From an uncultured Leptospiraceae bacterium (GTDB taxonomy: Bacteria > Spirochaetota > UBA4802 > UB4802), in the NCBI GenBank assembly GCA_964345775.1, contig CAYFSO010000001.1:11488-75487 (forward strand): a stretch of DNA of 64,000 nt, given 5' to 3'. A program made the translations under genes and the position numbers. Positions 20,047 through 40,574 of the stretch are shown here, piece by piece. The notes below the pieces were generated by a model. That model made no database searches. It was not told the DNA's origin and saw only the letters and a list, made by a program, of their open reading frames with translations. Position 1 is the first letter of the stretch; every line of letters begins with the position of its first letter.

Positions 20047-20325
20047 ATGGTAAAAGAAAAGTTATTCTGCGCAAATTGCCTCAACTGTATCGTCATTCGA
20101 CAATACGAATCCGAACCTGACAGGTATGTACTGAGAGTGCGATGCCTCAAGAAAAAATGGGTAAAACGGTCAGGAGAAGAAAAGCTTTACAAGTACTTTA
20201 CAGTTGCCAGGCGTATAATGGAAGATTGTGATGGTTACGCAGAAGCGGGAGAATTATATCCTTACATCAAGAACCTGAGAAAAGAACTACCCATCAAGGA
20301 CGAAATATACTCGACCAGGGAATAA
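20047..20325 (+). CDS. Small 92-aa Cys-containing protein (CxxCxxC plus two further Cys) placed first in the rnf operon.
   Basis: An AGGAG RBS lies 7 nt upstream. The N-terminus reads FCANCLNC and further Cys occur at about positions 33 and 61. The stop lies 3 nt before the rnfC start. Confidence 0.55.
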   Translation: MVKEKLFCANCLNCIVIRQYESEPDRYVLRVRCLKKKWVKRSGEEKLYKYFTVARRIMEDCDGYAEAGELYPYIKNLRKELPIKDEIYSTRE

Positions 20326-20328
20326 TTC

Positions 20329-21651: not shown

Positions 21652-21689
21652 TATTATCACCACAGAATACACAAGGAACCGGTACTATC

Positions 21690-22769
21690 ATGGCTGACGA
21701 AAAAAGGTTACAGGAAGATCTTGTACTCTCGAATCCTCCACATATTCGATCAAAGGATTCCCTCGGGAAAGTTATGTGGCTGGTGGTCATATCTCTTTTG
21801 CCTGCAACCATTAACTCGGTTTACCTGTTTGGCCTGCAGGTAGTGGTCCTGATCGGCACCGCCATTCTGTCGGCGGTTCTTGCTGAAGCGGTGTTCCAGT
21901 TTCTCATGAAAAAGGAAATTACCGCACTGGATGGATCGGCTGTTATTACCGGTCTTTTACTGGCAATGAACGTTCCTCCACATGCACCGGCATGGATGGT
22001 GGGTATTGGCTCCGCGTTTGCGATTATTATTGCCAAGCAGTTGTTCGGAGGCACCGGCTTCAATATTTTCAACCCGGCCCTTGCAGGCAGGGCCTTCCTT
22101 ATGGCATCATGGCCGGTTGAAATGACTACCATGTGGCACCCCTTCACGTCCGGCAATGTATTGTCATCTACGCTGCCACAGGCACATGGACTCCCGCAAA
22201 AAGCCGTGGACACCATCTCTTCGGCAACCCCGCTGGGAGTATTGAAAGAAGGTCCGGGCATGGTAAAGGAATTCAACGTTATGCCTGAACAGCTGCATGA
22301 GTTTCTTTTTTCCAATACGATGATGAAGTCACTTTTCATGGGGAATATAGGGGGGTGTATTGGCGAGACTTCAGCCATCTTCATTCTTTTAGGAGCACTT
22401 TTTCTACTTTACAGGAAAATTATCACCTGGCATATACCCGTATCATATATAGGGACGGTAGCTGTCATCATGCTGACATACTACCTGCTGAGCGGCTCCG
22501 ACATGCCGTACAGGGCCACCCTCTTTCACCTGTTATCCGGTGGATTGATGCTTGGTGCATTCTACATGGCCACCGATATGGTCACATCTCCTGTCACTGC
22601 CAGGGGAATGCTGATTTTCGGTATCGGCTGTGGTATCATCACGTCTGTTATACGGCTGTGGGGAGGGTACCCTGAAGGCGTATCATATTCCATATTATTG
22701 ATGAATGCCGCCGTTCCGCTGATTGACAGGTTGACAAGGCCAACAGTATTCGGTACAGAAAAAACATGA
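21690..22769 (+). CDS. rnfD: Rnf complex subunit D.
   Basis: Polytopic membrane protein carrying the conserved FNIFNPALAGRAFL and SSATPLG motifs. Confidence 0.9.
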   Translation: MADEKRLQEDLVLSNPPHIRSKDSLGKVMWLVVISLLPATINSVYLFGLQVVVLIGTAILSAVLAEAVFQFLMKKEITALDGSAVITGLLLAMNVPPHAPAWMVGIGSAFAIIIAKQLFGGTGFNIFNPALAGRAFLMASWPVEMTTMWHPFTSGNVLSSTLPQAHGLPQKAVDTISSATPLGVLKEGPGMVKEFNVMPEQLHEFLFSNTMMKSLFMGNIGGCIGETSAIFILLGALFLLYRKIITWHIPVSYIGTVAVIMLTYYLLSGSDMPYRATLFHLLSGGLMLGAFYMATDMVTSPVTARGMLIFGIGCGIITSVIRLWGGYPEGVSYSILLMNAAVPLIDRLTRPTVFGTEKT

Positions 22770-22797
22770 TCCAGGAATCCCAATATCGGAGAATATA

Positions 22798-23511
22798 ATG
22801 ACGACCAGGGAAATAATAAAGGGCACAATCATAATTGCCATCATCGCGTTCATAGCGGCTTTTTCGCTTTCCCATATCAATAATATTACAAGCCCGGCAA
22901 TTAAGGCGCAGCAGAAGGAAAAGGAAGAAAGTGCTCTTTCTGTGGTGCTTCCGGGGTATACAATACAGGAAAAAAGATCAACCTCCATTGATGGCGAAGA
23001 TTTTACGTACTGGACTGCGCAGAAAAAGGGAAACGGCCAGACTCTAAAAGCTTTTGCGTTTATCACAAGTCATCCAGGGTATTCAGGTGATATCAGGATG
23101 ATGGTTGGCATAAACAGTAAAAACCAGATCCTGGGACTTTCCATTCTTTCGCAGACAGAAACCCCGGGGCTGGGCGCACGATGCACCGAAATTGCCACCA
23201 CTGAAACATTTTTCGGGCATATACTCGGCACGTCCGTTGATGAAAATAAAGCACCTGGCACCGATGAACCCGCGCGTCCATGGTTCCAGAAACAATTCAA
23301 AGGCCTTGACGCAGAAGAAAAGATCGAGATCGTAAAGAAGGGCGACTGGCAGCCCTCGATGAGGGAGGAACTGCGAAAAAAGAACGCGGTAACCACCATC
23401 ACCGGGGCCACGGTAACCACCAGGGCAGTACGTGACGGCATCAAGGAAGGGATTGAAAACCTGCACAGGGCGCGCAAAAAACCTGAAAACGGGAGGGTTG
23501 ACGCAAAATGA
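22798..23511 (+). CDS. rnfG: Rnf complex subunit G, FMN-binding.
   Basis: N-terminal TM segment. The FMN-attachment region GATVTTRAV is present. Confidence 0.85.
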   Translation: MTTREIIKGTIIIAIIAFIAAFSLSHINNITSPAIKAQQKEKEESALSVVLPGYTIQEKRSTSIDGEDFTYWTAQKKGNGQTLKAFAFITSHPGYSGDIRMMVGINSKNQILGLSILSQTETPGLGARCTEIATTETFFGHILGTSVDENKAPGTDEPARPWFQKQFKGLDAEEKIEIVKKGDWQPSMREELRKKNAVTTITGATVTTRAVRDGIKEGIENLHRARKKPENGRVDAK

Positions 23512-24101
23512 GTTATCTCAATGATTTTATGAAAGGACTCTGGGAGAAGAACCCTATTCTCGTACTTGGTATAGGTCTCTGCCCCACCCTGGCGGTAACC
23601 ACGTCGGTATCAAACGCACTCTGGATGACCCTTGCAACCTCGTTTGTAATGGTCAGCTCAAATATTCTCGTGTCCATTATCCGGAAAGTCGTTCCGCCCC
23701 ATATACGTATTCCCATATTCATTACCATCATAGCAAGTTTCGTTATCATCGTGGAGCTTACACTCAAAGCATTTCAGCCTGATGTATACAAGGCACTGGG
23801 GATATTCATCCCCCTCATTGTTGTCAACTGTATGATACTTGGCAGAGCCGAGGAATTTGCATCAAAGAATACGCTGGGCAGGTCAATACTTGACGGACTT
23901 GGTATGGGAGCGGGTTTCGGCTTTACCCTGGTTATCCTTGCGTTCTTTCGTGAGACACTTGGGGCAAACAAGCTCTTTGGCCTTACCCTCATCCCCGGCA
24001 TAAAACCTGCCACCATGATGATACTGCCACCCGGGGCTTTTATAACACTTGGCCTCATGCTCTGGGCCATGAACGCCATCAAGTCAAAGACCAGGGGGTA
24101 A
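23508..24101 (+). CDS. rnfE: Rnf complex subunit E.
   Basis: MSYLNDFMKGLWEKNPILVLGIGLCPTLAVT is typical of RnfE/NqrD. Its start overlaps the rnfG stop by 4 nt. Confidence 0.9.
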   Translation: MSYLNDFMKGLWEKNPILVLGIGLCPTLAVTTSVSNALWMTLATSFVMVSSNILVSIIRKVVPPHIRIPIFITIIASFVIIVELTLKAFQPDVYKALGIFIPLIVVNCMILGRAEEFASKNTLGRSILDGLGMGAGFGFTLVILAFFRETLGANKLFGLTLIPGIKPATMMILPPGAFITLGLMLWAMNAIKSKTRG

Positions 24102-24103
24102 CC

Positions 24104-24703
24104 ATGGAGATCAAGGTACTTTTTGCCATACTTATAAGCACCATATTCGTTAACAACTACGTGCTCTCCCAGATGCTGGGATTGTGTCCTTTTCTTGGCG
24201 TTTCCAAGAGACTTGATTCTGCCATAGGCATGGGAATGGCCGTCATATTCGTTATGACCATGGCCTCCTTTTTCACGTATTTTATTTACAAGTTTGTCCT
24301 GGTTCCGTACAACATAACTTACCTCAGGACCATTGCCTTTATCATAGTCATAGCCTCACTTGTTCAGCTGGTGGAAATGGTCATAGAAAAGGTGTCCCCA
24401 TCCCTCTACCAGGCACTTGGTATTTTTCTTCCGCTGATAACTACCAACTGTGCCGTAATGGGTGTGGCGGTTTTGAACATTGATTCTGGATTCATCACGG
24501 CCAATATGGGCCTTTTGAAAACAGTGGTACAGGGACTTGGAGCGGGACTGGGCTTTACGCTGGCACTTCTGCTGCTGGCAGGCATACGTGAACGGCTCGA
24601 ACTGGCCGATATCCCTGAAAACATGAGGGGGCTCCCCATTACGTTCATTATTGCCGGACTGCTGGCCATGGCATTCTTAGGTTTTTCTGGAATGCAGATA
24701 TAA
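24104..24703 (+). CDS. rnfA: Rnf complex subunit A.
   Basis: IFVNNYVLSQMLGLCPFLGVSKRLDSAIGMG is typical of RnfA/NqrE. Confidence 0.9.
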   Translation: MEIKVLFAILISTIFVNNYVLSQMLGLCPFLGVSKRLDSAIGMGMAVIFVMTMASFFTYFIYKFVLVPYNITYLRTIAFIIVIASLVQLVEMVIEKVSPSLYQALGIFLPLITTNCAVMGVAVLNIDSGFITANMGLLKTVVQGLGAGLGFTLALLLLAGIRERLELADIPENMRGLPITFIIAGLLAMAFLGFSGMQI

Positions 24704-24725
24704 AATACTCGTACAGGACATATTA

Positions 24726-25361
24726 ATGGAACACAAGGAACCCGTAGTTACATTGCTGGCCATAACACCGGGGGCGGAAAAACTGATCGAGGAAGCAGGA
24801 AGAACCTGTTACCTGTCACTGGACCGTATTACCGACGAAAGCGAGAAAAACTTTATTCGCAAATGCATAAAGAACGGTCACCATTCCATACTGGAACACG
24901 CTTCAGCCAGTTTCAGGATACAGGGCGCTTCGCGGGCATTTACCCATCAACTGGTTCGCCACAGGGTTGCCAGTTTTTCTCAGCAGTCCCAGCGATATGT
25001 TAACGAATCAGAATTTAATTACGTAATACCTCCCGATATACTTGAGAATGATGAGGCAGCCCGCGTGTACAGGGAATTCATAGAACAATCCCGCAGGGCA
25101 TACAACAGCCTCAGGGAAGCCGGCATCAAGAAAGAAGACGCCCGTTTCGTTCTTCCCAATGCACTTGAAAGCCAGATAGTTTTCAGTGCCAATTTCAGGG
25201 AACTCAGGCACGTTTTTTCCCTCAGGCTGGAGAGGTTTGCACAGTGGGAAATACGCAGGGTGAGTGTTCAAATGCTGAAGTTACTTCAGGAAGAAGTCCC
25301 TTCCGTGTTCGGCGATTACATCATCGACGAAACGAACTGGACGGCAAAGTCTTCGTTGTAA
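24726..25361 (+). CDS. thyX: FAD-dependent thymidylate synthase ThyX.
   Basis: The ThyX signature RHR-x7-S-x-R appears as LVRHRVASFSQQSQRY. It also has SILEH and the N-terminus ITPGAEKLIEEAGRTCY. Confidence 0.85.
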   Translation: MEHKEPVVTLLAITPGAEKLIEEAGRTCYLSLDRITDESEKNFIRKCIKNGHHSILEHASASFRIQGASRAFTHQLVRHRVASFSQQSQRYVNESEFNYVIPPDILENDEAARVYREFIEQSRRAYNSLREAGIKKEDARFVLPNALESQIVFSANFRELRHVFSLRLERFAQWEIRRVSVQMLKLLQEEVPSVFGDYIIDETNWTAKSSL

Positions 25362-28543: not shown

Positions 28544-28930
28544 TCATGGTTTCAGGTATCGAAAATGATTAACGGCTTCAACTTCGGTATTAAAAAACTT
28601 TATGAATTTCTCCAGGTTGATCACATCAAGAACTACCTTTACACTCTCCTTCACGTTTGATATAACCAGGTCGCCTTCTTCCTTTCTCAGCATTTTTGCC
28701 GTATTTATCAGGATCCCTATCCCCGCACTATCGATATACTCTACTTCACCCATGTTAACCACGATTTTCCTTGCACCGCCACCAACCAGCGTGTGAAAGA
28801 GTACCCAGAAATCATTGGAGGTTTCAATATCCATTTTACCGGGAAAATCCACCTTGAAGATAACGGTACTATAATCAATATCCTTCTTGTTTACCGGTGA
28901 GATGTTGATTATTTCGCAATTAATGTTCAT
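28544..28930 (-). CDS. STAS-domain anti-sigma-factor antagonist (SpoIIAA/RsbV-like).
   Basis: STAS core VVNMGEVEYIDSAGIGILI with the conserved phosphorylatable Ser in DSAG. Confidence 0.8.
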   Translation of the reverse strand: MNINCEIINISPVNKKDIDYSTVIFKVDFPGKMDIETSNDFWVLFHTLVGGGARKIVVNMGEVEYIDSAGIGILINTAKMLRKEEGDLVISNVKESVKVVLDVINLEKFIKFFNTEVEAVNHFRYLKP

Positions 28931-28999
28931 TTGTTATACCATCTATTCATCTAGTTTATTAACCTGCCCACCTGCTGGTACAGTATTCCTGGTTATCTC

Positions 29000-29374
29000 C
29001 TATATAAACTTCAAGTAATTAACGGCTTCATTTACCGATGGAAACACCTTTATAAAACGTTGAAGATTGATGGGTTTAAAGATTATCTCAATCCTCTGCG
29101 GCATATCTATGAATACAAGGTCTCCGCTCTTTGCTCTCAATAACTTGGTTATCTCTATTATGGCGCCGATACCCTGGCTGTCAATGAATTCCAGGCCATT
29201 CATATCGATTATAATTTTTTTACCGCCACCGTTTACAATGGTAAACAGGAACTGGTATACATCGTTGGTGCGATCAATATCCATGAGATCGGCGATCTCA
29301 ACCCTGAAAATGATAGTATCATAGTTAACATCTTCTACTTTCAACCTGGTCAATTCAATAATCTCAACTATCAT
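29000..29374 (-). CDS. STAS-domain anti-sigma-factor antagonist; tandem paralog of the gene at 28544..28930.
   Basis: IIDMNGLEFIDSQGIGAII with the conserved Ser in DSQG. A GAGGAAAG RBS is present. Confidence 0.8.
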   Translation of the reverse strand: MIVEIIELTRLKVEDVNYDTIIFRVEIADLMDIDRTNDVYQFLFTIVNGGGKKIIIDMNGLEFIDSQGIGAIIEITKLLRAKSGDLVFIDMPQRIEIIFKPINLQRFIKVFPSVNEAVNYLKFI

Positions 29375-29486
29375 TAATAATTCTTTCCTCGTAATTATAA
29401 TAATAACGGGTCAGTGACAATTATGCATATTATGTTCATCAATGCAATAATAATTACGCAATTAATTCCCAGGAAGTTAAAAAACG

Positions 29487-32234
29487 TTACACGATATCCA
29501 GCACCATGATAGTTACGTCATCTTCAAAGCTTTCGTTGTGCCCCATGCCTGCCCACCTTCTGATGGATAGAACAACGTCTTCCACAAGCGCCTCGCCATC
29601 ACGGTGAACATCATCGGCAATTTTTTTTATGAACTGTTCATATCCAAAAAGCTTACCTTCACTGTTTCGGGTTTCAATTATGGCGTCTGTATACAGAACT
29701 ATCCTGTCACCGGAATGTATATTCACAGTAGTTTCATCATATGTACCGTCTTCAACCCATCCTATGGGGAGAGACTTGGCCCATTCGGTAACTGTTTTGT
29801 CTTCCTGGAATAACAGCGGTGCCCAGTGTCCCGCGTTGGAAACAGTCATAATGTTCTTACTTGTGTCGATGAACACATAACAGGCCGTAATGTAATTACT
29901 CTGGAGGTAATCATGCATGGTCCTGTTAATGCTTGTCATCAGTTTACCCGGCTGGTCTGCATAATCCATGTAAAATCCGGTCACCATCTTGAACATGGCA
30001 CAAATTATTGCGGCAGAGATCCCATGACCTGAAACATCGGCCATGATAAAACCGGTATGATCTTCATCAATTTTGATAATATCATAGAAATCCCCTCCCA
30101 TCTCCTGCATGGGGATATACCTGTATGCCACCTGTATATGCGCCAGTTCAGGCAATTCCTGGATAACCACCGAGTGATGTATCTGGTGGGCAATAAAGAG
30201 GTCTCTCTTGATCATGCTCAGTTCATTATGTTCTTCCACCGACCTCTTCATTGAAATAAGGCTGCGCACCCTTGCTATCAACTCCTCCCTGTTCACCGGT
30301 TTTGAGAGATAGTCATTTGCCCCTGACTGCAGGCCGGTAATGATGTCCTCTACCCTGCTTTTGGCAGTCAGCATCATAACCGGCAACTCGTGCATGGAAT
30401 ACTTCTCCCTGATCTTCCTGCAAACATCATAGCCTGACATGCGGGGAAGCATTACATCAAGCAGTATCAGGTCGGGCAACTGGCCTTCGTCTATCTTGTC
30501 CAGCAGGCGGTCAGCGCTCATTACATGATCAACGTGGTATCCTTCCATTGTTAGAAAATTGATCAGCACCTGCAGGTTGACCGGGTCGTCATCAACAATA
30601 AGCACATGCTTTGGATCTTCGTCATCACTGACCTGCGCATGTTGAAGTGTCAACTTTACTTCATCGTTAAAAATCCCGGTGTATTTCCAGGGAACTGGTT
30701 CTTCCCCGGCTTCAACAATACGGGTGGGTTCAACTGGTTCCGCTTTTGGCATGGTAAAATAGAACACTGAGCCCTGTCCGGGGCTGGATTCAGCCCATAT
30801 TATACCCCCGTGCAGCTCCACGAGTTTCCTGGTAATGGCAAGGCCAAGCCCCGTCCCACCGAATCTTCTGGCATCAGAACCATCCGCCTGTTCAAATGAT
30901 TCAAATATTCGCTCAATCCTGTTTTCGGGTATCCCTATCCCTGTATCGGCAATTGATACCTCAATTATGTTTTTGCCGGGTATTTCACGTGAGGATACCG
31001 TGATAGATCCCATTTCGGTAAACTTTACCGCGTTACCCACCAGGTTCATCATTATCTGCTGTATACGGTTCTCATCACCTTCAACAAACTCTGTTTCCCC
31101 CGGAATATCCACTTCCACTGACAATTGCCTGGTCTCAATAACCGGTTGCAGAATTGACAGAACGAACTGAGCAACGGAGCATATATTCACCGTTGTTCGT
31201 ACAAGTTCGATATCCCTGTTCTTCAACTTGGAAAAATCAAGGATGTCATCAACCAGGTATGAAAGCCTTTGCCCGCTTCTCACTATCAGGGCAAGGTCAT
31301 GAACCGCTTCTTCGGGCATCCGGCCTCCAACACCACCAAGGAGTGATTCTGCAAGTCCTATCATGCCATTGAGTGGTGTACGTAATTCATGGGATATATT
31401 GGCAAGGAACTCGTCTTTTAAATGGTCAAGTCTTTTCAGATCCCTGTTGTTGTCCTGCAGCTGCGAGATCTCCATGTTTATCATCCTGGTGAGATGATTG
31501 AAGGTATTTGCCAGCCGGCCTATCTCATCATTGCCCGTCACAGGTACCTCGTAATTCATGTTCCCGCTTTCAAATTCTGATACAGCAGATGTCAACCTGT
31601 CTATTGGCCTTGAAAAAAACCTGCTGAAAAAAAGGCCCAATATACTTACAACCAGGATAACCATGCCGGTGGCAACAAGTGCAAACATTCTCATTCTGCG
31701 AACAGGTGCCAGTATTTCTTCTTCTGAATACAACAACCTCGCCAGGCAAAGGGGACTTTTCCCGGGTAGTGAAGCCGTCTGTACAAACTGGTAACACTGG
31801 CCATTACCATTGGGACATTTCACGTTTGAAAACCCCGTATTCCCTTCCAGGTGTTCCACCATCTCTTCATCCAGTTGTGCCATCTTCTCATCTTTAAGAT
31901 CGATACCGGGGAACCGGGCAAGGACAATCCCGTTATAACGGGTCTTGGATGAAAGGAGAACCGCCTCTGCCGATATCAAGCCATCTTTGTCGAGCACCTG
32001 CATCATCTTCATGTATTCACCGGCATCCACCCGGGTTGAGTTGAGGTCTCCTCCATTCAGTAGCAGGGTATTCAGCACGGTTCGCGCCAGCATGCTTCCC
32101 TGCAGTTCTCCCTGGTGCATCAGCATTGATATTGTCTCATCCTTCTGCCTGTCCAGTATAAAGAGGGACACCGGGAGAGCAGCAAGCAGTGTGATTATTA
32201 TAAAGGCGATGATGAACTTGTAGCGTAACCTCAT
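29487..32234 (-). CDS. Multidomain sensor with the domain order periplasmic sensor-TM-HAMP-HisKA-HATPase-REC-PP2C (SpoIIE/RsbU-like phosphatase).
   Basis: Two TM segments flank a periplasmic region of about 160 aa. H-box: LANISHELRTPLNGMIG. HATPase motifs: NLVGNAVKFT, DTGIGIP and GGTGLGLAI. Receiver domain: VLIVDDDPV...LILLDVMLPRMSGYD...LSKP. C-terminal PP2C domain: GGDFYDII...GFIMADVSGHGISAAI. Length is 915 aa. Confidence 0.85.
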   Translation of the reverse strand: MRLRYKFIIAFIIITLLAALPVSLFILDRQKDETISMLMHQGELQGSMLARTVLNTLLLNGGDLNSTRVDAGEYMKMMQVLDKDGLISAEAVLLSSKTRYNGIVLARFPGIDLKDEKMAQLDEEMVEHLEGNTGFSNVKCPNGNGQCYQFVQTASLPGKSPLCLARLLYSEEEILAPVRRMRMFALVATGMVILVVSILGLFFSRFFSRPIDRLTSAVSEFESGNMNYEVPVTGNDEIGRLANTFNHLTRMINMEISQLQDNNRDLKRLDHLKDEFLANISHELRTPLNGMIGLAESLLGGVGGRMPEEAVHDLALIVRSGQRLSYLVDDILDFSKLKNRDIELVRTTVNICSVAQFVLSILQPVIETRQLSVEVDIPGETEFVEGDENRIQQIMMNLVGNAVKFTEMGSITVSSREIPGKNIIEVSIADTGIGIPENRIERIFESFEQADGSDARRFGGTGLGLAITRKLVELHGGIIWAESSPGQGSVFYFTMPKAEPVEPTRIVEAGEEPVPWKYTGIFNDEVKLTLQHAQVSDDEDPKHVLIVDDDPVNLQVLINFLTMEGYHVDHVMSADRLLDKIDEGQLPDLILLDVMLPRMSGYDVCRKIREKYSMHELPVMMLTAKSRVEDIITGLQSGANDYLSKPVNREELIARVRSLISMKRSVEEHNELSMIKRDLFIAHQIHHSVVIQELPELAHIQVAYRYIPMQEMGGDFYDIIKIDEDHTGFIMADVSGHGISAAIICAMFKMVTGFYMDYADQPGKLMTSINRTMHDYLQSNYITACYVFIDTSKNIMTVSNAGHWAPLLFQEDKTVTEWAKSLPIGWVEDGTYDETTVNIHSGDRIVLYTDAIIETRNSEGKLFGYEQFIKKIADDVHRDGEALVEDVVLSIRRWAGMGHNESFEDDVTIMVLDIV

Positions 32235-32241
32235 GAACCAC

Positions 32242-33372
32242 CTATTGGAATTTTTCCATTGTTCTCAGGTGTTTTTTCGCCCTTGAAAGATAGACACGGG
32301 CCACCTGGTTTTCCGGATCTATGAGAAGTATTTTCTGCATAATTGATATACATGCTTCGTAATTCCTTTTGTTAAAGGCCTCGATACCGTTCTTTTCGAG
32401 TGTATCGATCCTGTCTTTGAGCATGTTCCTGGTGTTTTCAAGCTTTTTGCCGGCCTTCTCCATGTAGGCGGACGCGTGGATCAGGTAAGGTATTGCAGTA
32501 TAATACCTGTCCCTGGCAAGGAGTGCGACTGCCTCGTCATAGGCATTCTCTGCTTCCCTTATCTCTTCAAGTTTCTCGACAGCTTCATCCAGGTCGGGAT
32601 CCAGGCTCAATGCCTTTTGAAAATATTCTTTTGCCTTCCCCGCCTTCCTGTTTTTCAACTCCTTTATACCTTTCCGGTAGTTCTCCCTGGCGCGGTCAAG
32701 GCTGGAACGCATTTCCTTCCTGGCTTCTTCACGGTATTCCCCGGGTTCGCCGGCGGCAAGGGTATACGAAACCCCCATGTTGAAGGAATTATTCAGCAGG
32801 GGTTCTCTCGAAAGCCACACCTGGCTGTAGACGGCATCAACTCGAAGGGACAACCGGTGAGTGATCTTCACATATGACCCTGCTGTCAGAACATATCCTG
32901 GTTTGAATGTATTCACCTCCTGCCCCGTAAGAACAGCATTTACCCGAAGGTACCGCAGGTCAAGGCCCGCTCCCGCAAAAAACCTGAAATTTTCATGCAC
33001 GTCATAATATAACAGGGGAGCAAGGGTCATCTCGTACGAGTACAGGAAGGAATCATTACTGCTGGTAAACTCGTGGGATGAGAGAGCAAGCCGCGTATCT
33101 GCCATAACATACCGGTTTAACGGAAAGGTGATGTACATTCCGTATGCAATGGAGGAATTCAACTTACCACTGTAATATCCCGGTATACTGGAATAACCTC
33201 CAAAGAGGCCTATGGTTACACGATCATCGGGGATAACCGGCCCTGCATTATTATTCCCGGCATACGTACATTTTGAAATGAATAAAAACAGAACACAAAT
33301 GCTGATCTGCAGAAACAGAAGCGGGACAACTTGCTGGCGGCATGCTGGTCTTTGAATTGTCAGATTCCCCAT
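32242..33372 (-). CDS. Outer-membrane beta-barrel domain protein with a C-terminal TPR-like helical domain.
   Basis: A signal peptide is followed by an OmpA-like beta-barrel pattern with alternating aromatic residues (...VSYTL). The C-terminal region of about 170 aa is helical with TPR-like repeats (AKEYFQKALSLDPDLDEA...). Confidence 0.55.
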   Translation of the reverse strand: MGNLTIQRPACRQQVVPLLFLQISICVLFLFISKCTYAGNNNAGPVIPDDRVTIGLFGGYSSIPGYYSGKLNSSIAYGMYITFPLNRYVMADTRLALSSHEFTSSNDSFLYSYEMTLAPLLYYDVHENFRFFAGAGLDLRYLRVNAVLTGQEVNTFKPGYVLTAGSYVKITHRLSLRVDAVYSQVWLSREPLLNNSFNMGVSYTLAAGEPGEYREEARKEMRSSLDRARENYRKGIKELKNRKAGKAKEYFQKALSLDPDLDEAVEKLEEIREAENAYDEAVALLARDRYYTAIPYLIHASAYMEKAGKKLENTRNMLKDRIDTLEKNGIEAFNKRNYEACISIMQKILLIDPENQVARVYLSRAKKHLRTMEKFQ

Positions 33373-33447
33373 CAGGCGATACTATCACATCCATGTTTTA
33401 GTGTAAATATACAGTACGCTGTTTCAACACAAAGTCAAGACAGTTCT

Positions 33448-34527
33448 TTACCAGCAGATACAGATAAGATCATGAGAGGATACACATACAGGTGCCCCTG
33501 AAGATATCCATTTGCTAACGATACTATCGCTGTCACCAGTTCGACCGTTATATGAAACAGTTCCATTGCTCCAGGTGTCACATGTATTAGCCGCATCAAG
33601 ACTGCCCTCAGTTGTTGACCCCGACCACCAGCTGGATGCTGCCACGCCTGCGGCATCCAGTGCTTTATTTATAGAACCATCCATCAGGTCATCCCAGTTG
33701 TATGCCACAAGGGTCCCGTCGGGTGATCTCACCGGCCAGTCCATGGGCACGCCATGCATGGCGGGAAAGTTCTTGATTGCATCGGTATCAGATATGCTTA
33801 TGAATGCAACTACATGACTGGTTTCCAATTCAGGGTGCTCTTCTTCTTTTCGCTCAGCACACATGTTATCAAGTTCTTCACGTGCCGAGGAAGCGGTCAT
33901 GGTCGCCATGTTGCCCCGGTACGTTCCCACGGAAAAGATATAGATAACTCCCCTTGTCGTTGCGGAGGTTGTGCTATACGCCGAGATATTATCATCTCCA
34001 TCACGTATCACCACATTAAAGTAATAGGTGGTTCCCTTATCAAGTGTTTCTGCCATCACCTGTGTTGTATTTATATACCAGCCGGTAACGGGGGAACCGT
34101 TATTCATGGCATCGGTTGCCGTTTTTATATTGTTCGATCTTGAACGGTACACCCTGTATTCAAGGTTTTCCACAGGCGTCATATCATCTGAGCCCTTTGC
34201 CCACTGCAGTTTCACACTGTTATCATTCACTGATGACGTGGTGATGATACCATCATTCCCGGAATTCGGAAACTGGTTGAAAGGATCAGGATTACCTGAC
34301 GTATCCTCATCCTGTTGTGCGGCAGTATTCTCTTCGTTTACTACATCTTTAACACCATCTTCAAAACAGGCAGTAAAAACGGCAAGTACAAACATGAAAA
34401 CCAGCACAAGTACAACATTGATAACCGACCGTACGGTATGTGCTGAAAAATGAAAAATCACTGCCTTCTTTCCAGCAGTGATTACCTTTTCTTCCCGGGC
34501 TTTAAGCCCATTCTTTAACAGTTTCAT
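33448..34527 (-). CDS. Hypothetical secreted protein with a fibronectin-III-like segment.
   Basis: N-terminal TM/signal segment VINVVLVLVFMFVLAVFTAC. A stretch LQWAKGSDDMTPVENLEYRVYRS resembles an FN3 strand. The C-terminus is Cys-rich (VCVSSHDLICICW). Confidence 0.45.
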   Translation of the reverse strand: MKLLKNGLKAREEKVITAGKKAVIFHFSAHTVRSVINVVLVLVFMFVLAVFTACFEDGVKDVVNEENTAAQQDEDTSGNPDPFNQFPNSGNDGIITTSSVNDNSVKLQWAKGSDDMTPVENLEYRVYRSRSNNIKTATDAMNNGSPVTGWYINTTQVMAETLDKGTTYYFNVVIRDGDDNISAYSTTSATTRGVIYIFSVGTYRGNMATMTASSAREELDNMCAERKEEEHPELETSHVVAFISISDTDAIKNFPAMHGVPMDWPVRSPDGTLVAYNWDDLMDGSINKALDAAGVAASSWWSGSTTEGSLDAANTCDTWSNGTVSYNGRTGDSDSIVSKWISSGAPVCVSSHDLICICW

Positions 34528-34657: not shown

Positions 34658-35890
34658 TTAGTAATCGGTGTGATAATCGATGCACAGTATGAAAGTATCG
34701 CCCTCAATAGTGGCAAATGACGTGGACATGGTGGTACAGAGTTCTCCCGTTGCAGTCGAAATATACGGTTCCGTTGTATACTTATTCATTCCAGCATTAA
34801 TAAAGTAATAGTAATCCTTGAACGAGAGGTCCTCTCCTGTTTCTGCAGGACGAAACAACCTGCTGGTTGCCGGTGCGCTGAATCCCGGGTTCATAACCGT
34901 TCGGGTTATCTGCACACCTTTTGAATCAAGTATATAGCCACAACTAATCTCTGTAAGCCCTGCCAGCAATTCGGTAAGTGTTTCATCCAGTTCAGAAGCA
35001 TAACAGTTTGAAAGTTCACTCTTTATTTCAGCTGTTATGTGGTTAAGAAAACGAAACGTATCCCTTTTCTTCTGGATCTTTTTCAGCGTATGTTCCCTGA
35101 AATCAAGTGCCACTTCTTCTATAGTTTCATATAAAGATCCCACGGGTATATCAGCAGCCGGGGCAGGCTCAGCAAAGTAATATCCCTGCAGGACATCTAC
35201 CCCCAGTTCAAGAAGATGTGCCGCATCATCGCTGTTTTCAATCCCTTCTGCTACTATCACCGCACCCGTTTTATGCCCAAGGTTCACTATTGAACGGGAA
35301 ACTTCCTGCCTGTAAAAACTCTTGTTCACATCCTTCACAAGTGAGCGGTCAAGCTTCAAGAGATGGGGGCTGATAGAGAACAACCTGTCCCAGTTGAGGT
35401 TCTGTCGACCCATGTCGTCAAGGGCAACAAGGAACCCGTTATCCTTGTAATCATCGACAAAGGACCGGAGCAGGTCGGTATGACTGTTGCATGATTCTAC
35501 TATTTCGATCATAACATTTCCGGGATGGATATTATACTGGTTAACCATATCCAGGAGCATATTCGAACAAAGGAAGGTATCATCAAGAAAGGTAATATCC
35601 ATGTTTATTGACAAAATGTGCTCCGGGTTAAGCCGGTGGAGAGGGGCGTATGCCTGTATGCCCTTTTTGCGGCATAGCCTGTCAAGTTGGAGCACCACTC
35701 CCTGCTCCCTGGCAGACTGAAATAATATATCAGGAGGAATAATAGAGCCTTTTTCAGGATGGATACCCCTTGATAATGCCTCGTAGCCAATCACCTTTTT
35801 TTTACGAAGGGATACCATTGGCTGAAAATGTGTTTCTATCAATTCTTCATCAATTATTCTCTTTATGTCAAAATCAATTGCTATCTGCAT
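34658..35890 (-). CDS. EAL-domain c-di-GMP phosphodiesterase with a C-terminal domain of about 150 aa of unknown function.
   Basis: EAL motifs: YEALSRG, NxD..., VALDDMG and GHKTGAVIVAEGIEN...QGYYFAEP. The canonical catalytic residues are present. Confidence 0.8.
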   Translation of the reverse strand: MQIAIDFDIKRIIDEELIETHFQPMVSLRKKKVIGYEALSRGIHPEKGSIIPPDILFQSAREQGVVLQLDRLCRKKGIQAYAPLHRLNPEHILSINMDITFLDDTFLCSNMLLDMVNQYNIHPGNVMIEIVESCNSHTDLLRSFVDDYKDNGFLVALDDMGRQNLNWDRLFSISPHLLKLDRSLVKDVNKSFYRQEVSRSIVNLGHKTGAVIVAEGIENSDDAAHLLELGVDVLQGYYFAEPAPAADIPVGSLYETIEEVALDFREHTLKKIQKKRDTFRFLNHITAEIKSELSNCYASELDETLTELLAGLTEISCGYILDSKGVQITRTVMNPGFSAPATSRLFRPAETGEDLSFKDYYYFINAGMNKYTTEPYISTATGELCTTMSTSFATIEGDTFILCIDYHTDY

Positions 35891-36011: not shown

Positions 36012-37220
36012 TCAAACCCCGTGCATCCCGATGATGGCTATACTGCATACATTCATCATGGGAAATCCACCCAGGTTGTGGGTCAAGCCCAGCTTCGGAT
36101 CCTTCAACTGCCGCTCTCCTGCCCGTCCATGAAGCTGGAGGTACACCTCGTACAGCATACGCAGCCCCGATGCGCCTATGGGATGGCCAAAGCATTTCAA
36201 CCCGCCATCGGTCTGGCATGGTATCTGCCCATCCAGGTCAAAAAAGCCGTTTAAAATATCTTCCGGTGCACTGCCCCTTTCAGATATATGCAGGTCTTCC
36301 ATTGTAATAAGTTCTGTAATCGAAAAGCAGTCGTGAACTTCCAGCATGCTCAGTTCTTTCCTGGGATCTTTAATGCCCGCTTCACTGTACGCTTCACTGC
36401 TCGCCTTTGATGTGGTAACAAAATGCGCGCCATCCCAGTTGCTGAACGCAATTTCCTCACCGTTACTCAATGCCAGTTGCAATGCCTTCACTGACACGAA
36501 ATCCTTTTTCCCCATCTTTTTTGCAAGTTCGGGGGTGGTGACTATGGCACAGGCCGCGCCATCACTGACCCCGCAACAATCAAAAAGGCCAAGCGGGAAG
36601 GCGATCATGGGTGCGTTCAGTACCTGGTCCTCTGTGACCGCCTTCTGCAAATGGGCTTTTTTATTCAGCACGCCATTCCTGTGACTTTTTGCCGAAACAT
36701 GGGCCATGGCCTTTTTCAGGTCTTCCATCTTTACACCGTATTTGGCCGTGTATCCGCTTGCCAGCATGGCAAAACAACCGGGCGCCGTTACGTTGGGAAA
36801 CCAGAGCCCATTCAACGTGCCGATGGCAGAACTGAACTCCGGAAGTCCACCATACCCCACATCCTTGAGTTTTTCCGACCCTATGGCCAGGGCAATGTCA
36901 TACGCGCCTGATGCCACTGCATATACTGCCCCCCTGAAAGCCTCTGTGCCGCTTGCACAAAAATTTTCAGTGCGGGTTACTGCTATATTAGGAAACCGCA
37001 ATGCCATGGAGGCGGGCAGCGCGCTTTTCCCTACGTTGACCTCGTCAAAACAACTGGAAAACCATGCGGCCTCTACCTGGTTCTTTTCTATACCTGCATC
37101 CTGGATAGCTTCTTCGAAGGCTTCCACCATCAGGTCCTCTGAACTGTCTTCCCACCGTTCACCAAACTTTGTACAGCCCATTCCTATTATGGCTACCTTG
37201 TCACGAATACCCTTAGCCAT
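36012..37220 (-). CDS. SCPx-type (non-specific lipid-transfer protein-like) thiolase.
   Basis: MAKGIRDKVAIIGMGCTKFGERWE... has the thiolase fold with the active-site Cys in GMGCTKFG. A GGAGG RBS is present. It overlaps the upstream gene by 8 nt. Confidence 0.8.
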   Translation of the reverse strand: MAKGIRDKVAIIGMGCTKFGERWEDSSEDLMVEAFEEAIQDAGIEKNQVEAAWFSSCFDEVNVGKSALPASMALRFPNIAVTRTENFCASGTEAFRGAVYAVASGAYDIALAIGSEKLKDVGYGGLPEFSSAIGTLNGLWFPNVTAPGCFAMLASGYTAKYGVKMEDLKKAMAHVSAKSHRNGVLNKKAHLQKAVTEDQVLNAPMIAFPLGLFDCCGVSDGAACAIVTTPELAKKMGKKDFVSVKALQLALSNGEEIAFSNWDGAHFVTTSKASSEAYSEAGIKDPRKELSMLEVHDCFSITELITMEDLHISERGSAPEDILNGFFDLDGQIPCQTDGGLKCFGHPIGASGLRMLYEVYLQLHGRAGERQLKDPKLGLTHNLGGFPMMNVCSIAIIGMHGV

Positions 37221-38682
37221 GAGATACCTCCTCTGCCTTTGGGACTGCCTTCCAGAAATATCCACTGAAGCCACGCACATGGTCCCGGTATTTCCGCCTG
37301 AAAGACAGGTCCATTTCCATCCCTACCGATACGTTATCAAGCTGGCAGTCCGTGAAGTCCAGCATTGTACGTCCACCACCCTCGAATTCAACAAGTCCAT
37401 ATATTGCGGGAGGGTCAATTGAAGCAGCCAGCATATCCCCGGTATACATGAGCACCCTGGCAGTCTTTCCCGGAAAACTGTAATCTTCCATGTCATTCAC
37501 CGCGTTGCATTCCGGGTTCACACACATTGGTGTTGGAGGGAACTGTACAGTACCACATGCCCTGCACTTTGCCCCTGTCATGCCCAGTATCATTTTCCTG
37601 TGACGCCATAGTGCGGTAAGCGGAGTATTTTTTACCGATTCACCCCTGATGCCCATATCCGCTTCAAGCATGTCCCTGAACTTGAGATACCTGGGATAAG
37701 ATGCCATCTCCAGCCTGTGTCCCAGCAATTCTGCGAATCCCCGTGGTCGTGATAATTTTTCTATATTATCCGTAACCCTAAAGCCCAGCACATCACATCC
37801 CTGTCCAAAACCGGCAATCACTATGATCTCCCCCGGTCTGGCCTTATCCAAAACCGGGTTAAGCATAAGCAGTGGATGTGCTGACCCGGTATCCCCGCAA
37901 CTATCATGCAGGTTATCCTGTACCTTCTCTTCCGGCAGGCCCAGCTTTCTGGCGATGTTCCTGTGCTCACGGTTGTAGTAGCAGGGATATACCACGTGGG
38001 ATACGTCTTCGATCTTAACAGAATGCCGTGCCAGGAAACCCTTTATTGCTTCCGGGATAATGGTTGCAAAGCCTTCATCCCGAACCCATCTTTCTTCCCA
38101 GTTATAATCGAATTTATTTCGAGGACTCCTGTAATGATCAACCAGGTCATGTTGTATTGAGTATGATCCGAGATATTCAGCTATTACGTTGTCATCACCA
38201 ACTATCACCGCCGCGGCACCATCCCCTATGAACATTTCGTACATGGTTGCTGATTTTGCCATCCTGTTATCCGAAGCGGCAACCATTATGGCAGAAGATG
38301 CTCCGCTTGACGCGGTTTCACACGCGGTAATAAGAGCACCTGTTCCCGATTTCAACGAACCGGTAAAATCAGACGTACGTACTCCTTCCTCCGGCAGGTT
38401 GAGTGCATTCGCGATGATCCCTGCATTTTGCCTGTCAAGGAAGGGAGGGGTGGTGGTGGCATAAAACAGGGTATCCACCTTTTTCATGTCCGCATCCCTG
38501 CTGCAGTCATACGCGGCGGCAACAGCCATGGTCAATGCGTCCTCGTCCCAGTTTGCCACGGTGCGTTCACCTTTGGCCACGGCAAATATTACCGGGTTAA
38601 ACCATGCCATGTTTTGCACCACGGTCATCCTGGGCAGCCTGTTACGCGGCAGGTAACCTCCATAACTCACAATTCCAGCCAT
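37213..38682 (-). CDS. HMG-CoA-synthase-like (thiolase-fold) protein fused to a C-terminal DUF35-type Zn-ribbon/OB-fold domain.
   Basis: The N-terminus AGIVSYGGYLPRNRL...ERTVANWDEDALTMAVAAA is typical of HMGCS-like condensing enzymes. The C-terminus has a CRACG...CVNPEC rubredoxin-like Zn ribbon followed by an OB-fold (DUF35/ChsH2-like). A GGAGG RBS is present. Confidence 0.75.
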   Translation of the reverse strand: MAGIVSYGGYLPRNRLPRMTVVQNMAWFNPVIFAVAKGERTVANWDEDALTMAVAAAYDCSRDADMKKVDTLFYATTTPPFLDRQNAGIIANALNLPEEGVRTSDFTGSLKSGTGALITACETASSGASSAIMVAASDNRMAKSATMYEMFIGDGAAAVIVGDDNVIAEYLGSYSIQHDLVDHYRSPRNKFDYNWEERWVRDEGFATIIPEAIKGFLARHSVKIEDVSHVVYPCYYNREHRNIARKLGLPEEKVQDNLHDSCGDTGSAHPLLMLNPVLDKARPGEIIVIAGFGQGCDVLGFRVTDNIEKLSRPRGFAELLGHRLEMASYPRYLKFRDMLEADMGIRGESVKNTPLTALWRHRKMILGMTGAKCRACGTVQFPPTPMCVNPECNAVNDMEDYSFPGKTARVLMYTGDMLAASIDPPAIYGLVEFEGGGRTMLDFTDCQLDNVSVGMEMDLSFRRKYRDHVRGFSGYFWKAVPKAEEVSHG

Positions 38683-38744
38683 TACTTTCCTCCTCCTGGA
38701 CACCCGGCGGGAAATCTCCCGTCGGGTCGTTTTTGCGTTCTTTT

Positions 38745-39653
38745 TTATTTCAAAAGTGGAGCCATGAAACCGAAACTTTCCCCCAGGTTGTTCAGGGGTT
38801 TGGCATCACCTATATCGGTGATCTTATCCCAGTTCTCTTTTATCTCCTCCGGTGATATTTCACGGGAACCGTCCCCGATAATTGTACCGCTTGCACACAC
38901 AACAGCGGTTCTGCTGTACCATCCTGCTGCACAGTTGAATATCATTCCACTGTCCTGGCAGTCTTCCGAGGCGAGGTACAACACCAGTGGTACTATGAAG
39001 TCTGGCTTTAGCTTTTCGAACATTTCAGGCGGCAGTACATCTTCGGTAAGCCTTGATGCCGCCACCGGTGCGATAGTATTGGTAAATATGCTGTTCTTGG
39101 CGCCTTCCAGTTTCAATACGTTCATTAAGCCTATAAGTCCCGTCTTTGCGGAGGCGTAATTTGCCTGTCCAAAGTTACCGTAAAGACCGGCACCTGAAGT
39201 GGTAAATATGATCCTGCCGTACCCCTGTTCCTTCATCGCAAGGAAGGCAGGCTGGGTCACGCAGTATGCACCACGCAGGTGAACCGCAACAACCGAGTCC
39301 CATTCGGCCTCTGACATCCTGGAAAAGCTCCTGTCACGAAGAATTCCAGCGTTATTGACCAAAACATCAATCTTCCCGAAAGCGTCAATAGCGGTCTTGA
39401 CGATGTTCTGTCCACCTTCAATTGTTGCAACGTTATCGTAATTTGCAACAGCCTCTCCACCCTGTGATCTTATCTCGTCAACAACCGTATCCGCCGCGTT
39501 GTGACTTTCACCAGACCCATCTCGTGATCCACCAAGGTCATTGACCACAACCTTTGCGCCTCTTTTCGCAAACTCCAGGGCGTAGTTCTTCCCCAGACCG
39601 GCACCGGCCCCGGTAATTATTACTACCCTGTCCTTGAAATCAATTGATGCCAT
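38745..39653 (-). CDS. SDR-family 3-hydroxyacyl-CoA dehydrogenase, resembling the dehydrogenase domain of MFE-2/HSD17B4.
   Basis: RVVIITGAGAGLGKNYALEFAKRGAKVVVNDLGG closely matches the MFE-2 N-terminus. YxxxK appears as YASAK. A GGGAGG RBS precedes the ATG at 39653. Confidence 0.8.
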   Translation of the reverse strand: MASIDFKDRVVIITGAGAGLGKNYALEFAKRGAKVVVNDLGGSRDGSGESHNAADTVVDEIRSQGGEAVANYDNVATIEGGQNIVKTAIDAFGKIDVLVNNAGILRDRSFSRMSEAEWDSVVAVHLRGAYCVTQPAFLAMKEQGYGRIIFTTSGAGLYGNFGQANYASAKTGLIGLMNVLKLEGAKNSIFTNTIAPVAASRLTEDVLPPEMFEKLKPDFIVPLVLYLASEDCQDSGMIFNCAAGWYSRTAVVCASGTIIGDGSREISPEEIKENWDKITDIGDAKPLNNLGESFGFMAPLLK

Positions 39654-39713
39654 ATACAACCTCCCATGTATTTATCATGAATTATACTTGTTTTAATTAC
39701 CATTCACCATCCA

Positions 39714-40574
39714 CTAAACACCATCATCCACCATGCACCAGCTGTTACGCAACACGTCCTTACCCTCGTTATTGACAGCGTTTATGCCGTAACGTGTTCC
39801 CTCACCGGTTTTCTCTACCTGGAAGCCCTCGAAGCTTATGGTTTGTCCCGGTATAACCGGCCTTGCAAAACGGACTTTCAGGGCACGTAATCTCATGGGG
39901 TCACGATCATCCCCGCAGAGGTTATCCACAGCCGCCTTATGGGTAAATGCCATTGTACACAAACCCTGTAATATTATCCCGGGTAAGCCAACCTTTTTTG
40001 CAAATTCATCATCAACATGTATTGGGTTATGATCTCCCGATGGTTCTGCGTAAATGAAACTTTGCCCGTTCCTTACCTGCATGCTGTCCTTCCAGAGGAC
40101 ATTCGTCTTCTCAATGGTTTCTTCTTTGTGATCATCCGGTTTCCCTGAACCGGCACTTCGGTCATAGAATTCCCATTTTGATCTTACCACTTCCTCACCA
40201 TCCTGGTTACTACTGGTAGTTTCCCAGCCGAGGATCCCCCCTCTTTCACGGACATGGATATGACGTATAGTTCCTTCGGTGGTTATCACGTCATCCGGCC
40301 GTACCGGCTTTAGCCAGTGAAATTCCTGCGAGTAATGCACCACCATCATCATGTTCATACCAATCTCTTCGTCAAACATTATCCGGGCCGTGGGACCCGC
40401 AGCATAATGAACCGCGTACATGGGAGGAACTATGATACCCCCCTGCCTCCTGTTATCATAAAACGCATTATTATCCTCGTTATACGCCAGGGCATAATAG
40501 ATACTTTCGTGCCTGGATATCGTTACAGGTGAAGAGGTGTACGTTTTACCGATGACGTTCTCATTGAGCGGCAT
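39714..40574 (-). CDS. MaoC-family double hot-dog (R)-specific enoyl-CoA hydratase (hydratase-2-like).
   Basis: Two hot-dog halves. The C-terminal half carries the MaoC motif region PIHVDDEFAKKVGLPGIILQGLCTMA. A GGAGGA RBS is present. Confidence 0.75.
   Translation of the reverse strand: MPLNENVIGKTYTSSPVTISRHESIYYALAYNEDNNAFYDNRRQGGIIVPPMYAVHYAAGPTARIMFDEEIGMNMMMVVHYSQEFHWLKPVRPDDVITTEGTIRHIHVRERGGILGWETTSSNQDGEEVVRSKWEFYDRSAGSGKPDDHKEETIEKTNVLWKDSMQVRNGQSFIYAEPSGDHNPIHVDDEFAKKVGLPGIILQGLCTMAFTHKAAVDNLCGDDRDPMRLRALKVRFARPVIPGQTISFEGFQVEKTGEGTRYGINAVNNEGKDVLRNSWCMVDDGV

Follow-up and report, generated by a model that had tools for sequence, protein, structure and literature searches.

A cluster of five consecutive minus-strand genes is described here, located at positions 28544-34527 of a 64,000-nt stretch of DNA (the window) from an uncultured Leptospiraceae bacterium (contig CAYFSO010000001.1). 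The genes encode a predicted FN3-endostatin-like lipoprotein, an outer-membrane beta-barrel/TPR protein (OMP-TPR protein), a 915-aa fused sensor-phosphatase (the kinase for short) and two single-domain STAS proteins, STAS_A and STAS_B. The cluster is conserved among uncultured Spirochaetota as a signalling module, a novel arrangement of a well-known bacterial switch that overturns nothing. We consider it fairly probable that an envelope-gated relay within one polypeptide sets the activity of a PP2C phosphatase on phosphorylated STAS proteins, with the STAS kinase and the output encoded elsewhere. The observations underlying this reading are the order of the genes, the folds of their domains, the conservation of catalytic and acceptor residues, the recurrent linkage of the genes and the absence of an RsbW-type gene nearby. 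The coordinates of all features are collected in Table 1.

The 915-aa protein combines a periplasmic sensor with a histidine kinase, a receiver (REC) and a PP2C/SpoIIE phosphatase. Its HAMP (50 bits), HisKA (66), HATPase_c (110), Response_reg (107) and SpoIIE/PP2C (139) domains all score above the Pfam gathering thresholds. A database search returned about 72 full-length orthologues with 39-100% identity, and the five Pfam domains are common to all of them. The orthologues with a source name all stem from metagenome-assembled genomes (MAGs), mostly labelled Spirochaetes or Spirochaetota. Phospho-acceptor H282 of the HisKA domain is kept in 71 of the 72 sequences, the ATP-binding residues N401, D430, G432, G434 and G464 in every one. 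The same holds for D548, D549, D593 and K645 of the receiver pocket (T623: 70/72). None of the metal-binding aspartates of the PP2C domain has been lost, a point on which the first-pass annotation, made from the sequence of the window, had let its proposal depend: D715, D733, D850, D905 and D906 are invariant across the orthologues, and the catalytic motif G736-H737-G738 is essentially so. Judged by these residues, the protein is a hybrid histidine kinase on every catalytic count, yet without a histidine phosphotransfer (Hpt) step. No Hpt domain was found by Pfam in the protein itself or in the Pfam tables of the neighbourhoods, so that the receiver would end the relay, with PP2C as its output.

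The sensor lies between two transmembrane (TM) helices and consists of a long N-terminal helix, a five-stranded antiparallel sheet and flanking helices. The closest relatives of this sCache fold are the ligand-binding domains of CitA and DctB. Invariant or nearly invariant positions in 24 orthologues are N60, G61, D70, G85, A89, S95, G102, R166 and S170. Among solved structures, Pseudomonas aeruginosa RssB (3eq2/3es2; E 5e-20, phmmer against the PDB) comes closest to the REC-linker-PP2C part, the match covering linker and PP2C. The NCBIfam model RR_RssB_Pseudo aligns to residues 543-859 with 129 bits, against an equivalog cut-off of 700. In all 72 orthologues this part is fused behind TM-sCache-HAMP-HisKA-HATPase_c and is not a stand-alone soluble response regulator. 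Fusions of HisKA, HATPase_c, REC and SpoIIE occur in databases, elsewhere with other sensor domains and in other phyla, and some members carry the JGI label 'histidine kinase/serine phosphatase RsbU'. Full-text literature searches returned no characterisation of the HisKA-HATPase_c-REC-PP2C fusion or of its association with an OMP-TPR protein or lipoprotein. The full fusion together with its envelope partners thus appears to be uncharacterised, while its separate parts have precedents in RsbK/RsbY, RsfS/RsfR, HsbR/HsbA, SypE/SypA and RssB/RssC.

Orthologues of the kinase were examined in ten distinct genomic contexts, mostly of uncultured Spirochaetota, which have no flanking genes in common with the window. 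The loci are designated by L numbers. The window, L003, L008 and L021 share the order FN3-endostatin, OMP-TPR, kinase, STAS_A, STAS_B (context i). L004/L010 (ii) have this order plus a convergent second kinase-REC-PP2C paralogue, and L005/L022 (iii) encode STAS_A, STAS_B, a 2xFN3 protein, OMP-TPR and the kinase. The order in L011 (iv) is Kelch lipoprotein, OMP-TPR, kinase, STAS_A, STAS_B; in L018 (v), a 3xFN3 protein and a STAS protein are followed by OMP-TPR on the opposite strand and by the kinase. L019 (vi) comprises FN3-endostatin, OMP-TPR and kinase, with a STAS gene 5.4 kb upstream. The shorter arrangements are OMP-TPR, kinase in L006/L012 (vii), kinase, STAS_A, STAS_B in L002/L017 (viii), STAS, kinase in L007/L020 (ix) and kinase, STAS, STAS in L033 (x). 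The kinase gene thus has an adjacent STAS gene in 8/10 contexts, OMP-TPR in 7/10 and an FN3 or Kelch lipoprotein in 6/10.

An OMP-TPR homologue is located directly upstream of the kinase gene in L003, L004, L005, L006, L008, L011 and L019 (gaps 7-56 nt) and is divergent from it in L018. In six loci, only 7-12 nt separate the OMP-TPR stop codon from the kinase start. Full-length FN3-endostatin homologues adjoin the OMP-TPR gene in L003, L004, L008 and L019; L005 and L018 have FN3-only versions. In L011, the position of the FN3-endostatin lipoprotein is taken by a Kelch beta-propeller lipoprotein (8669-9799, plus strand; lipobox LFSC), and the receptor-like lipoprotein partner appears to be exchangeable. 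That the order is permuted in contexts iii and v speaks for selection on linkage and against inherited collinearity. Judged by gene order, the stable core of the module is formed by the kinase-PP2C and STAS genes (three genes), with OMP-TPR as a frequent tight partner and the lipoprotein as a variable accessory. A profile scan of genome contigs with the OMP-TPR alignment, using a single pattern, returned nine loci, five of which were informative. A metagenome scan returned two full-length loci, both from lineages already in the sample.

Two of the loci are conspicuous in other respects. The genome of L004, Bin_56_1 (GCA_009885955.1), encodes at least three kinase-REC-PP2C paralogues and three OMP-TPR paralogues (L004, L006, L013). 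One kinase paralogue (L004 11821-14580, minus strand, equivalent to L010 14972-17716) is convergent with STAS_B of the main cluster, an arrangement that suggests that several inputs share one STAS pair. In L007, a complete 16S-tRNA-tRNA-23S rRNA operon (2411-7444) lies directly upstream of the STAS and kinase-REC-PP2C pair. The MAG of this locus is labelled Zixibacteria, whereas nearly all other orthologues are from Spirochaetota.

The first-pass annotation had described the cluster as five consecutive minus-strand genes with short gaps, and the open reading frame (ORF) coordinates agree exactly. The gaps are 75 nt between the lipoprotein and OMP-TPR genes, 7 nt from the OMP-TPR stop codon to the kinase start, 112 nt between kinase and STAS_A and 69 nt between STAS_A and STAS_B. 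A consensus scan of the minus strand found no intrinsic-terminator-like site in the four internal gaps. That the five genes act as one unit, as had also been proposed, is supported by the short gaps, the lack of an internal terminator and the recurrence of the linkage in lineages of 39-49% identity. An adjacency of five functionally unrelated genes by chance is hardly credible: the gaps of 69-112 nt could hold internal promoters, and a TATAAT-like box is present between kinase and STAS_A, but the same gene types recur together without common flanks and in different orders, and the synteny contradicts a chance association. The sole strong hairpin with a T-run (34483-34456, minus strand; 10-bp stem) is found within the first 25 codons of the lipoprotein ORF, whose ATG at 34527 is preceded by a plausible ribosome-binding site (AAGAGG). 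This hairpin could be an attenuator or the terminator of the upstream EAL gene, or the true start of the lipoprotein could lie further downstream. No RNA family, riboswitch or other, reached the Rfam gathering score within the window.

Both STAS proteins are recognized by Pfam (STAS_A 55 bits, STAS_B 65 bits), and they are 38.5% identical to each other. With respect to the NCBIfam model ant_ant_sig (cut-off 53.45), STAS_B is above the threshold with 67.8 bits and STAS_A slightly below it with 47. The best solved relatives of the two proteins are the anti-sigma antagonists TM1081, SpoIIAA, TM1442 and RsbV; for STAS_B, phmmer against the PDB matched TM1081, SpoIIAA and RsbV. In the PDB alignments, the Asp-Ser of the IDSAG/IDSQG motifs is aligned with the DSSG motif of SpoIIAA, whose phospho-acceptor is Ser58. 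The retention of the serine noted in the first-pass annotation extends to the other genomes, the Asp-Ser pair (D65-S66 in STAS_A) being invariant in 11/11 STAS sequences from these loci. The A-type orthologues (L002-L005, L008, L011, L017) are 38-85% identical. B-type orthologues share 49-87% identity with STAS_B of the window, A-type copies 34-44%. The B-type copies are therefore closer to each other than to the A-type, from which it follows that the STAS duplication predates these lineages and that both copies have been maintained.

Alternatively, the STAS proteins might not be PP2C substrates at all and might, for instance, assist a lipid transporter in the manner of MlaB or bind nucleotides or anions, with PP2C acting elsewhere. 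STAS_B does give a weak match to the NCBIfam MlaB model (27.6 bits, E 2.9e-6), and the window contains an MlaD/MlaE/ABC cluster at 13306-15692. The MlaB score is, however, far under the cut-off of 90, whereas that of the anti-sigma-antagonist model exceeds its own, and an MlaB-like role was rejected on these NCBIfam scores. The solved relatives and the invariant acceptor motif point in the same direction, and it is the STAS genes, not the Mla genes, that track the PP2C gene. This alternative is very improbable.

Of the two envelope proteins, the 376-aa OMP-TPR protein reaches 30.8 bits for TPR_2, above the gathering threshold, and 25.5 bits for OMP_b-brl, below the threshold of 28.7. Among its homologues, TPR_2 is found in 9/9 and OMP_b-brl in 4/9 (best E 1.8e-7). 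In a PDB profile search, TPR proteins matched residues 228-281 and 332-368. The barrel domain is a prediction from hidden Markov model (HMM) evidence. The termini of small outer-membrane barrels are normally periplasmic. If the domain is a barrel, the TPR domain is therefore predicted to be periplasmic as well.

In the 359-aa protein, Cys54 closes the hydrophobic N-terminal segment and is the predicted lipobox cysteine. The Pfam match to fn3 is weak (20.9 bits against 25), and DUF1554 and Endostatin remain below significance; among the homologues, fn3 is detected in 26/33, DUF1554 in 12/33 and Endostatin in 9/33. An AlphaFold2 model based on a 38-sequence alignment has a mean confidence (pLDDT) of 88.7. 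In a Foldseek search against the PDB, its C-terminal half is matched by endostatin, which has a C-type-lectin-like fold (1dy1/1koe; E 5e-8, TMt 0.71-0.73), and its middle part by FN3 domains. The domain calls of the first-pass annotation for the five genes agree with Pfam; the weak fn3 assignment is backed by homologues and by the model, that of OMP_b-brl by some of the homologues. An exhaustive phmmer search with the FN3 unit gave 2650 matches from a large adhesin-like family with up to 42 repeats in giant proteins, and about 30 proteins among the matches listed, of roughly 280-365 aa, have the whole FN3-endostatin architecture. Because the FN3 family is large and the architecture is shared, the lipoprotein is not specific to the module.

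Judging from synteny, the envelope proteins may be inputs of the kinase. The first-pass annotation had likewise pointed to a cell-surface stimulus; envelope genes do recur beside the kinase gene, but the FN3-like protein is inconstant and the OMP-TPR gene is missing in three contexts, so that the link to the envelope is an accessory to the three-gene core. The two proteins could instead be cargo, outputs or co-expressed envelope parts, for instance of a surface structure, while the sCache domain senses a small ligand alone. We regard this as unlikely, though it has appreciable weight. The relationship of the sensor to the CitA and DctB domains and its invariant Arg166 would fit such a role, and so would the inconstant type of lipoprotein with an FN3 unit from so large a family. 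Moreover, the contexts with kinase and STAS and no OMP-TPR or lipoprotein gene imply that the kinase can work without them. On the other hand, the OMP-TPR gene is kept directly upstream with gaps of 7-12 nt in lineages of less than 50% identity. It also stays in place in L005, where the STAS genes have changed position, and in L006, which lacks them, as would fit a stoichiometric partner. Finally, TPR is a protein-binding module that would share the compartment of the sensor domain.

The kinase that would phosphorylate the STAS proteins was searched for at two levels. Of the 54 window ORFs with a length of 90 aa or more, all screened by Pfam, none encodes a PF13581 (HATPase_c_2)/RsbW-type protein. 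Likewise, HATPase_c_2 was not found in the orthologue neighbourhoods supplied with a Pfam table. In addition, an HMM was built from Bacillus subtilis RsbW (sequence checked against PDB 6m36) and SpoIIAB and applied to every stop-to-stop segment of at least 70 aa in the window and the loci (428 kb together), including L011 and others without a Pfam table. Over these 428 kb, it matched solely GHKL domains of large histidine kinases. The best match (E 1e-5) is a convergent HisKA-like kinase of 466-480 aa in L007 and L020. The gene follows the kinase-REC-PP2C gene in both of these single-STAS loci (L007 10799-12199 and L020 10786-12228, both minus strand), and its product combines a clear HATPase_c domain with a weak HisKA. 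This protein might be a candidate STAS kinase for the L007/L020 subclade. The lack of a nearby RsbW-type kinase, already noted in the first-pass annotation, is thus true for the window and conserved in every neighbourhood examined.

The absence of the kinase in cis is not unusual in itself. The published description of the rssB-rssC operon of Pseudomonadaceae names a REC-PP2C and a STAS protein as its products and mentions no kinase (PMC12923157). The kinases for the STAS domain of All4160, which is controlled by HenR in Anabaena, were identified separately by a two-hybrid screen (PMC13555669). As to a sigma factor, a 327-aa sigma-70 family protein with regions 1.2, 2, 3 and 4 is encoded 18 kb from the module. 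It falls below all NCBIfam equivalog cut-offs (RpoD 311 against 572 bits, RpoS 275 against 379) and looks like a group-2-type alternative sigma factor, without linkage evidence to the module. The idea in the first-pass annotation of a possible output other than a sigma factor seems reasonable. Its label of a partner-switching operon was borne out for the phosphatase and the STAS antagonists, but not for the GHKL kinase/anti-sigma factor or another STAS-binding target, neither of which was found within the available sequence. The module is therefore not filed here as a complete partner-switching system; functionally, it may work as the input branch of one.

A further possibility is a self-contained switch gated from the outer membrane, in which the barrel/TPR protein and the interchangeable lipoprotein would act on the sCache domain, the GHKL domain or the whole fused protein would also phosphorylate the STAS serine, PP2C would remove the phosphate and the target would not be a sigma factor. 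If true, this would be a partner-switch-like pathway without RsbW and without a sigma factor. SypE and HsbR write and erase the STAS phosphate in one polypeptide by means of an RsbW-like domain. RsbW-type and histidine-kinase ATPases have the GHKL fold in common, the RsbW/SpoIIAB HMM cross-matches weakly, and a separate kinase was found in 0/10 neighbourhoods. The canonical HATPase_c, the HisKA with its conserved His282 and the complete receiver pocket are, however, what an ordinary His-to-Asp relay needs, and the 915-aa protein gives no PF13581 signal. We know of no precedent for a HisKA-type kinase that phosphorylates a STAS serine. Absence in cis is also weak evidence, the rssB-rssC operon and the All4160 kinases being similar cases. 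For these reasons, a self-contained switch is considered improbable.

In the envelope-gated relay that we favor, a stimulus at the envelope would reach the periplasmic sCache domain either directly, as a small ligand, or via the periplasmic TPR domain of the co-translated OMP protein and the variable lipoprotein, here the FN3-endostatin-like one. The stimulus would alter autophosphorylation of His282, from which Asp593 in the fused receiver would take over the phosphoryl group inside the dimer without the need for an Hpt step. Through the helical linker, the receiver would act on the PP2C dimer and move dephosphorylation of phospho-Ser66 (STAS_A) and phospho-Ser68 (STAS_B) up or down. The unphosphorylated STAS proteins would then bind partners encoded elsewhere, either an RsbW-type kinase/anti-sigma factor or a non-sigma target, and thereby change transcription or an enzyme activity. 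We infer the protein-protein contacts and the existence of a distant STAS kinase, as well as the output and the sign of the control exerted by the receiver.

Several of these steps have counterparts in the literature. In the structure of RssB, the receiver is coupled to the phosphatase dimer by linker helices that cross each other; it has been argued that this principle holds for PPM phosphatases in general (PMC12143880). That a REC-PP2C protein acts on phospho-STAS under two-component control has been established experimentally in split form for RsbK-RsbY-RsbV (PMC4574943) and RsfS-RsfR-RsfB (PMC10950880). Receiver phosphorylation activates RsbY but inhibits RsfR (PMC4574943, PMC10950880), so that the sign of control in the 915-aa protein is not predictable. 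Non-sigma STAS outputs are also established, namely HsbA-HsbD, SypA and SiaC (PMC6482189, PMC12826045, PMC9239204).

A number of points weigh against the proposed relay. As no STAS kinase is found in the window or any neighbourhood, the substrate of PP2C is assumed. Three of the ten contexts are without OMP-TPR and two without an adjacent STAS gene, and hence neither partner is obligatory. No class of target genes co-varies with the module across the contexts. An input role of the envelope proteins is not distinguishable from a role as outputs or from co-expression. The operon status of the five genes is predicted from spacing and synteny, and all orthologues with a source name come from MAGs.

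Table 1 Features of the module and of its surroundings in the window (aa numbering refers to the encoded protein)
Feature	Position	Strand	Description
STAS_B, 128 aa, single-domain	28544..28930	-	Candidate phospho-acceptor Ser68, codon 28729-28727, motif IDSAGIG
STAS_A, 124 aa, single-domain	29000..29374	-	Candidate phospho-acceptor Ser66, codon 29179-29177, motif IDSQGIG
Fused sensor-phosphatase (kinase), 915 aa	29487..32234	-	TM1 (6-27), sCache/PDC (28-183), TM2, HAMP (202-251), HisKA (273-339, H282), HATPase_c (386-498), receiver (544-657, D593), helical linker, PP2C/SpoIIE (723-913)
PP2C/SpoIIE codons (residues 723-913)	29496..30068	-	Motifs GGDFYD, ADVSGHG, NAGH, YTDA, DDVT
sCache/PDC-like periplasmic sensor codons (residues 28-183)	31686..32153	-	
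OMP-TPR protein, 376 aa	32242..33372	-	Signal peptide, predicted OmpA/OmpX-like beta-barrel (~50-205), TPR (~225-370)
Predicted lipoprotein, 359 aa	33448..34527	-	Signal segment to Cys54 (..AVFTAC), linker, FN3 (~87-192), endostatin-like/DUF1554-type domain (~195-359)
Sigma-70 family protein, 327 aa	10410-11393	+	
Rnf-type cluster, then thyX	20047-25361	+	RnfC, RnfD, FMN-binding subunit, two Rnf-Nqr membrane subunits
Cys-rich ORF, 111 aa	28204-28539	+	No Pfam or NCBIfam match
EAL phosphodiesterase	34658-35890	-	EAL 175 bits; C-terminal ~165 aa without Pfam match
Four-gene cluster	36012-40574	-	Thiolase; fused ACP_syn_III_C + zf-ChsH2 + OB_ChsH2 (DUF35-type); short-chain dehydrogenase; MaoC-type hydratase
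ORF, 108 aa	61674-62000	-	Matches the last 70 positions of Beta-Casp only

The EAL phosphodiesterase gene lies 130 nt upstream of the cluster and was rejected as a member, since its collinearity is confined to close relatives (L003, L008; 75% identity) and the gene is missing elsewhere. On the other side, the Cys-rich ORF is convergent with STAS_B (stop codons 5 nt apart) and has counterparts (53-54% identity) in L003 and L008 only. The order of the four-gene cluster is conserved in L003, with which the Rnf-type cluster and thyX are collinear as well. The 108-aa ORF is probably the remnant of a truncated gene; it overlaps an acyl-CoA dehydrogenase gene at the 3' end of the latter.

Partner-switching modules are very widespread bacterial stress and lifestyle switches, and signal entry is known for few of them. 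The family described here collapses the input layer, i.e. sensor, histidine kinase, receiver and phosphatase, into one protein. If the OMP-TPR protein and the swappable lipoprotein are true inputs, they would provide a cell-surface route to serine-phosphate signalling in diderms, and the three to five genes would make a compact system for studying receiver control of a PP2C dimer and the division of output between STAS paralogues. The module is also a conserved example of PP2C-STAS pairs without a cognate kinase in cis, which bears on how such pairs are wired into genome-wide kinase networks. Of the spirochaete terms looked for, none occurs in a review of STAS domains (PMC8256260), and the Leptospira papers examined do not address such modules.

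The RssB-RssC pair of Pseudomonadaceae (3eq2/3es2/3f79/3f7a) contains the solved protein most similar to the REC-linker-PP2C part. RssB is a soluble response regulator, and ClpXP degradation of RpoS has been described as depending on both RssB and RssC; the protein described here is a membrane fusion. The pair lacks a fused kinase and envelope genes and has a single STAS protein, and the present cluster differs in all three respects. More generally, the REC-PP2C response regulators RsbY, RsfR, HenR and RssB are homologous to the C-terminal part of the 915-aa protein, which unlike them is not stand-alone. In Chlamydia, the RsbU-RsbV1/RsbV2-RsbW system includes the RsbW kinase, and its RsbU is without a histidine-kinase or receiver layer. 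With regard to the envelope, RcsF/OMP-IgaA-RcsCDB and NlpE-CpxA are relays in which an outer-membrane-associated protein signals the state of the envelope or surface to an inner-membrane histidine kinase through the periplasmic domain of the latter. The present cluster has no sequence relationship to them; its putative adaptor is a beta-barrel/TPR fusion and its output a serine phosphatase instead of a DNA-binding regulator. DUF1554 (PF07588)/endostatin-like proteins appear, from the structural model, to have the endostatin fold in common with the C-terminal domain of the 359-aa lipoprotein, which differs in being fused to FN3 and linked to a signalling operon.

A receiver-controlled PP2C acting on a STAS protein, as proposed here, is also found in HptB-HsbR-HsbA of P. 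aeruginosa, CrsR-CrsA of Shewanella and SypE-SypA of Vibrio fischeri, in which the receiver obtains its input from upstream hybrid kinases. HsbA has FlgM or the diguanylate cyclase HsbD as its partner, and the target of SypA is post-transcriptional (PMC6482189, PMC12826045). HsbR, CrsR and SypE carry an RsbW-like serine-kinase domain in the same polypeptide and receive their phosphate in trans (HsbR via HptB). In the 915-aa protein, by contrast, HisKA is paired with a GHKL domain of the canonical histidine-kinase ATPase type, and the relay would run in cis.

The RsbK-RsbY-RsbV-RsbW-sigmaB system of Bacillus cereus and the RsfS-RsfR-RsfB-RsbW1-SigF system of Mycobacterium smegmatis run from a TM kinase via a REC-PP2C receiver to a single-domain STAS protein (PMC4574943, PMC10950880). 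The domain inventory of their kinases and phosphatases (RsbK/RsbY, RsfS/RsfR) is the same as that of the 915-aa protein, but kinase and REC-PP2C are separate in both systems and form one polypeptide here. The sensor domain of RsfS is CHASE3 (PMC10950880) and not sCache as in the present protein. A sigma factor and an RsbW kinase/anti-sigma factor belong to both systems (PMC4574943, PMC10950880) but are not near the cluster described here. In contrast to both, this cluster combines its fused kinase-phosphatase with two STAS paralogues and envelope partner genes.

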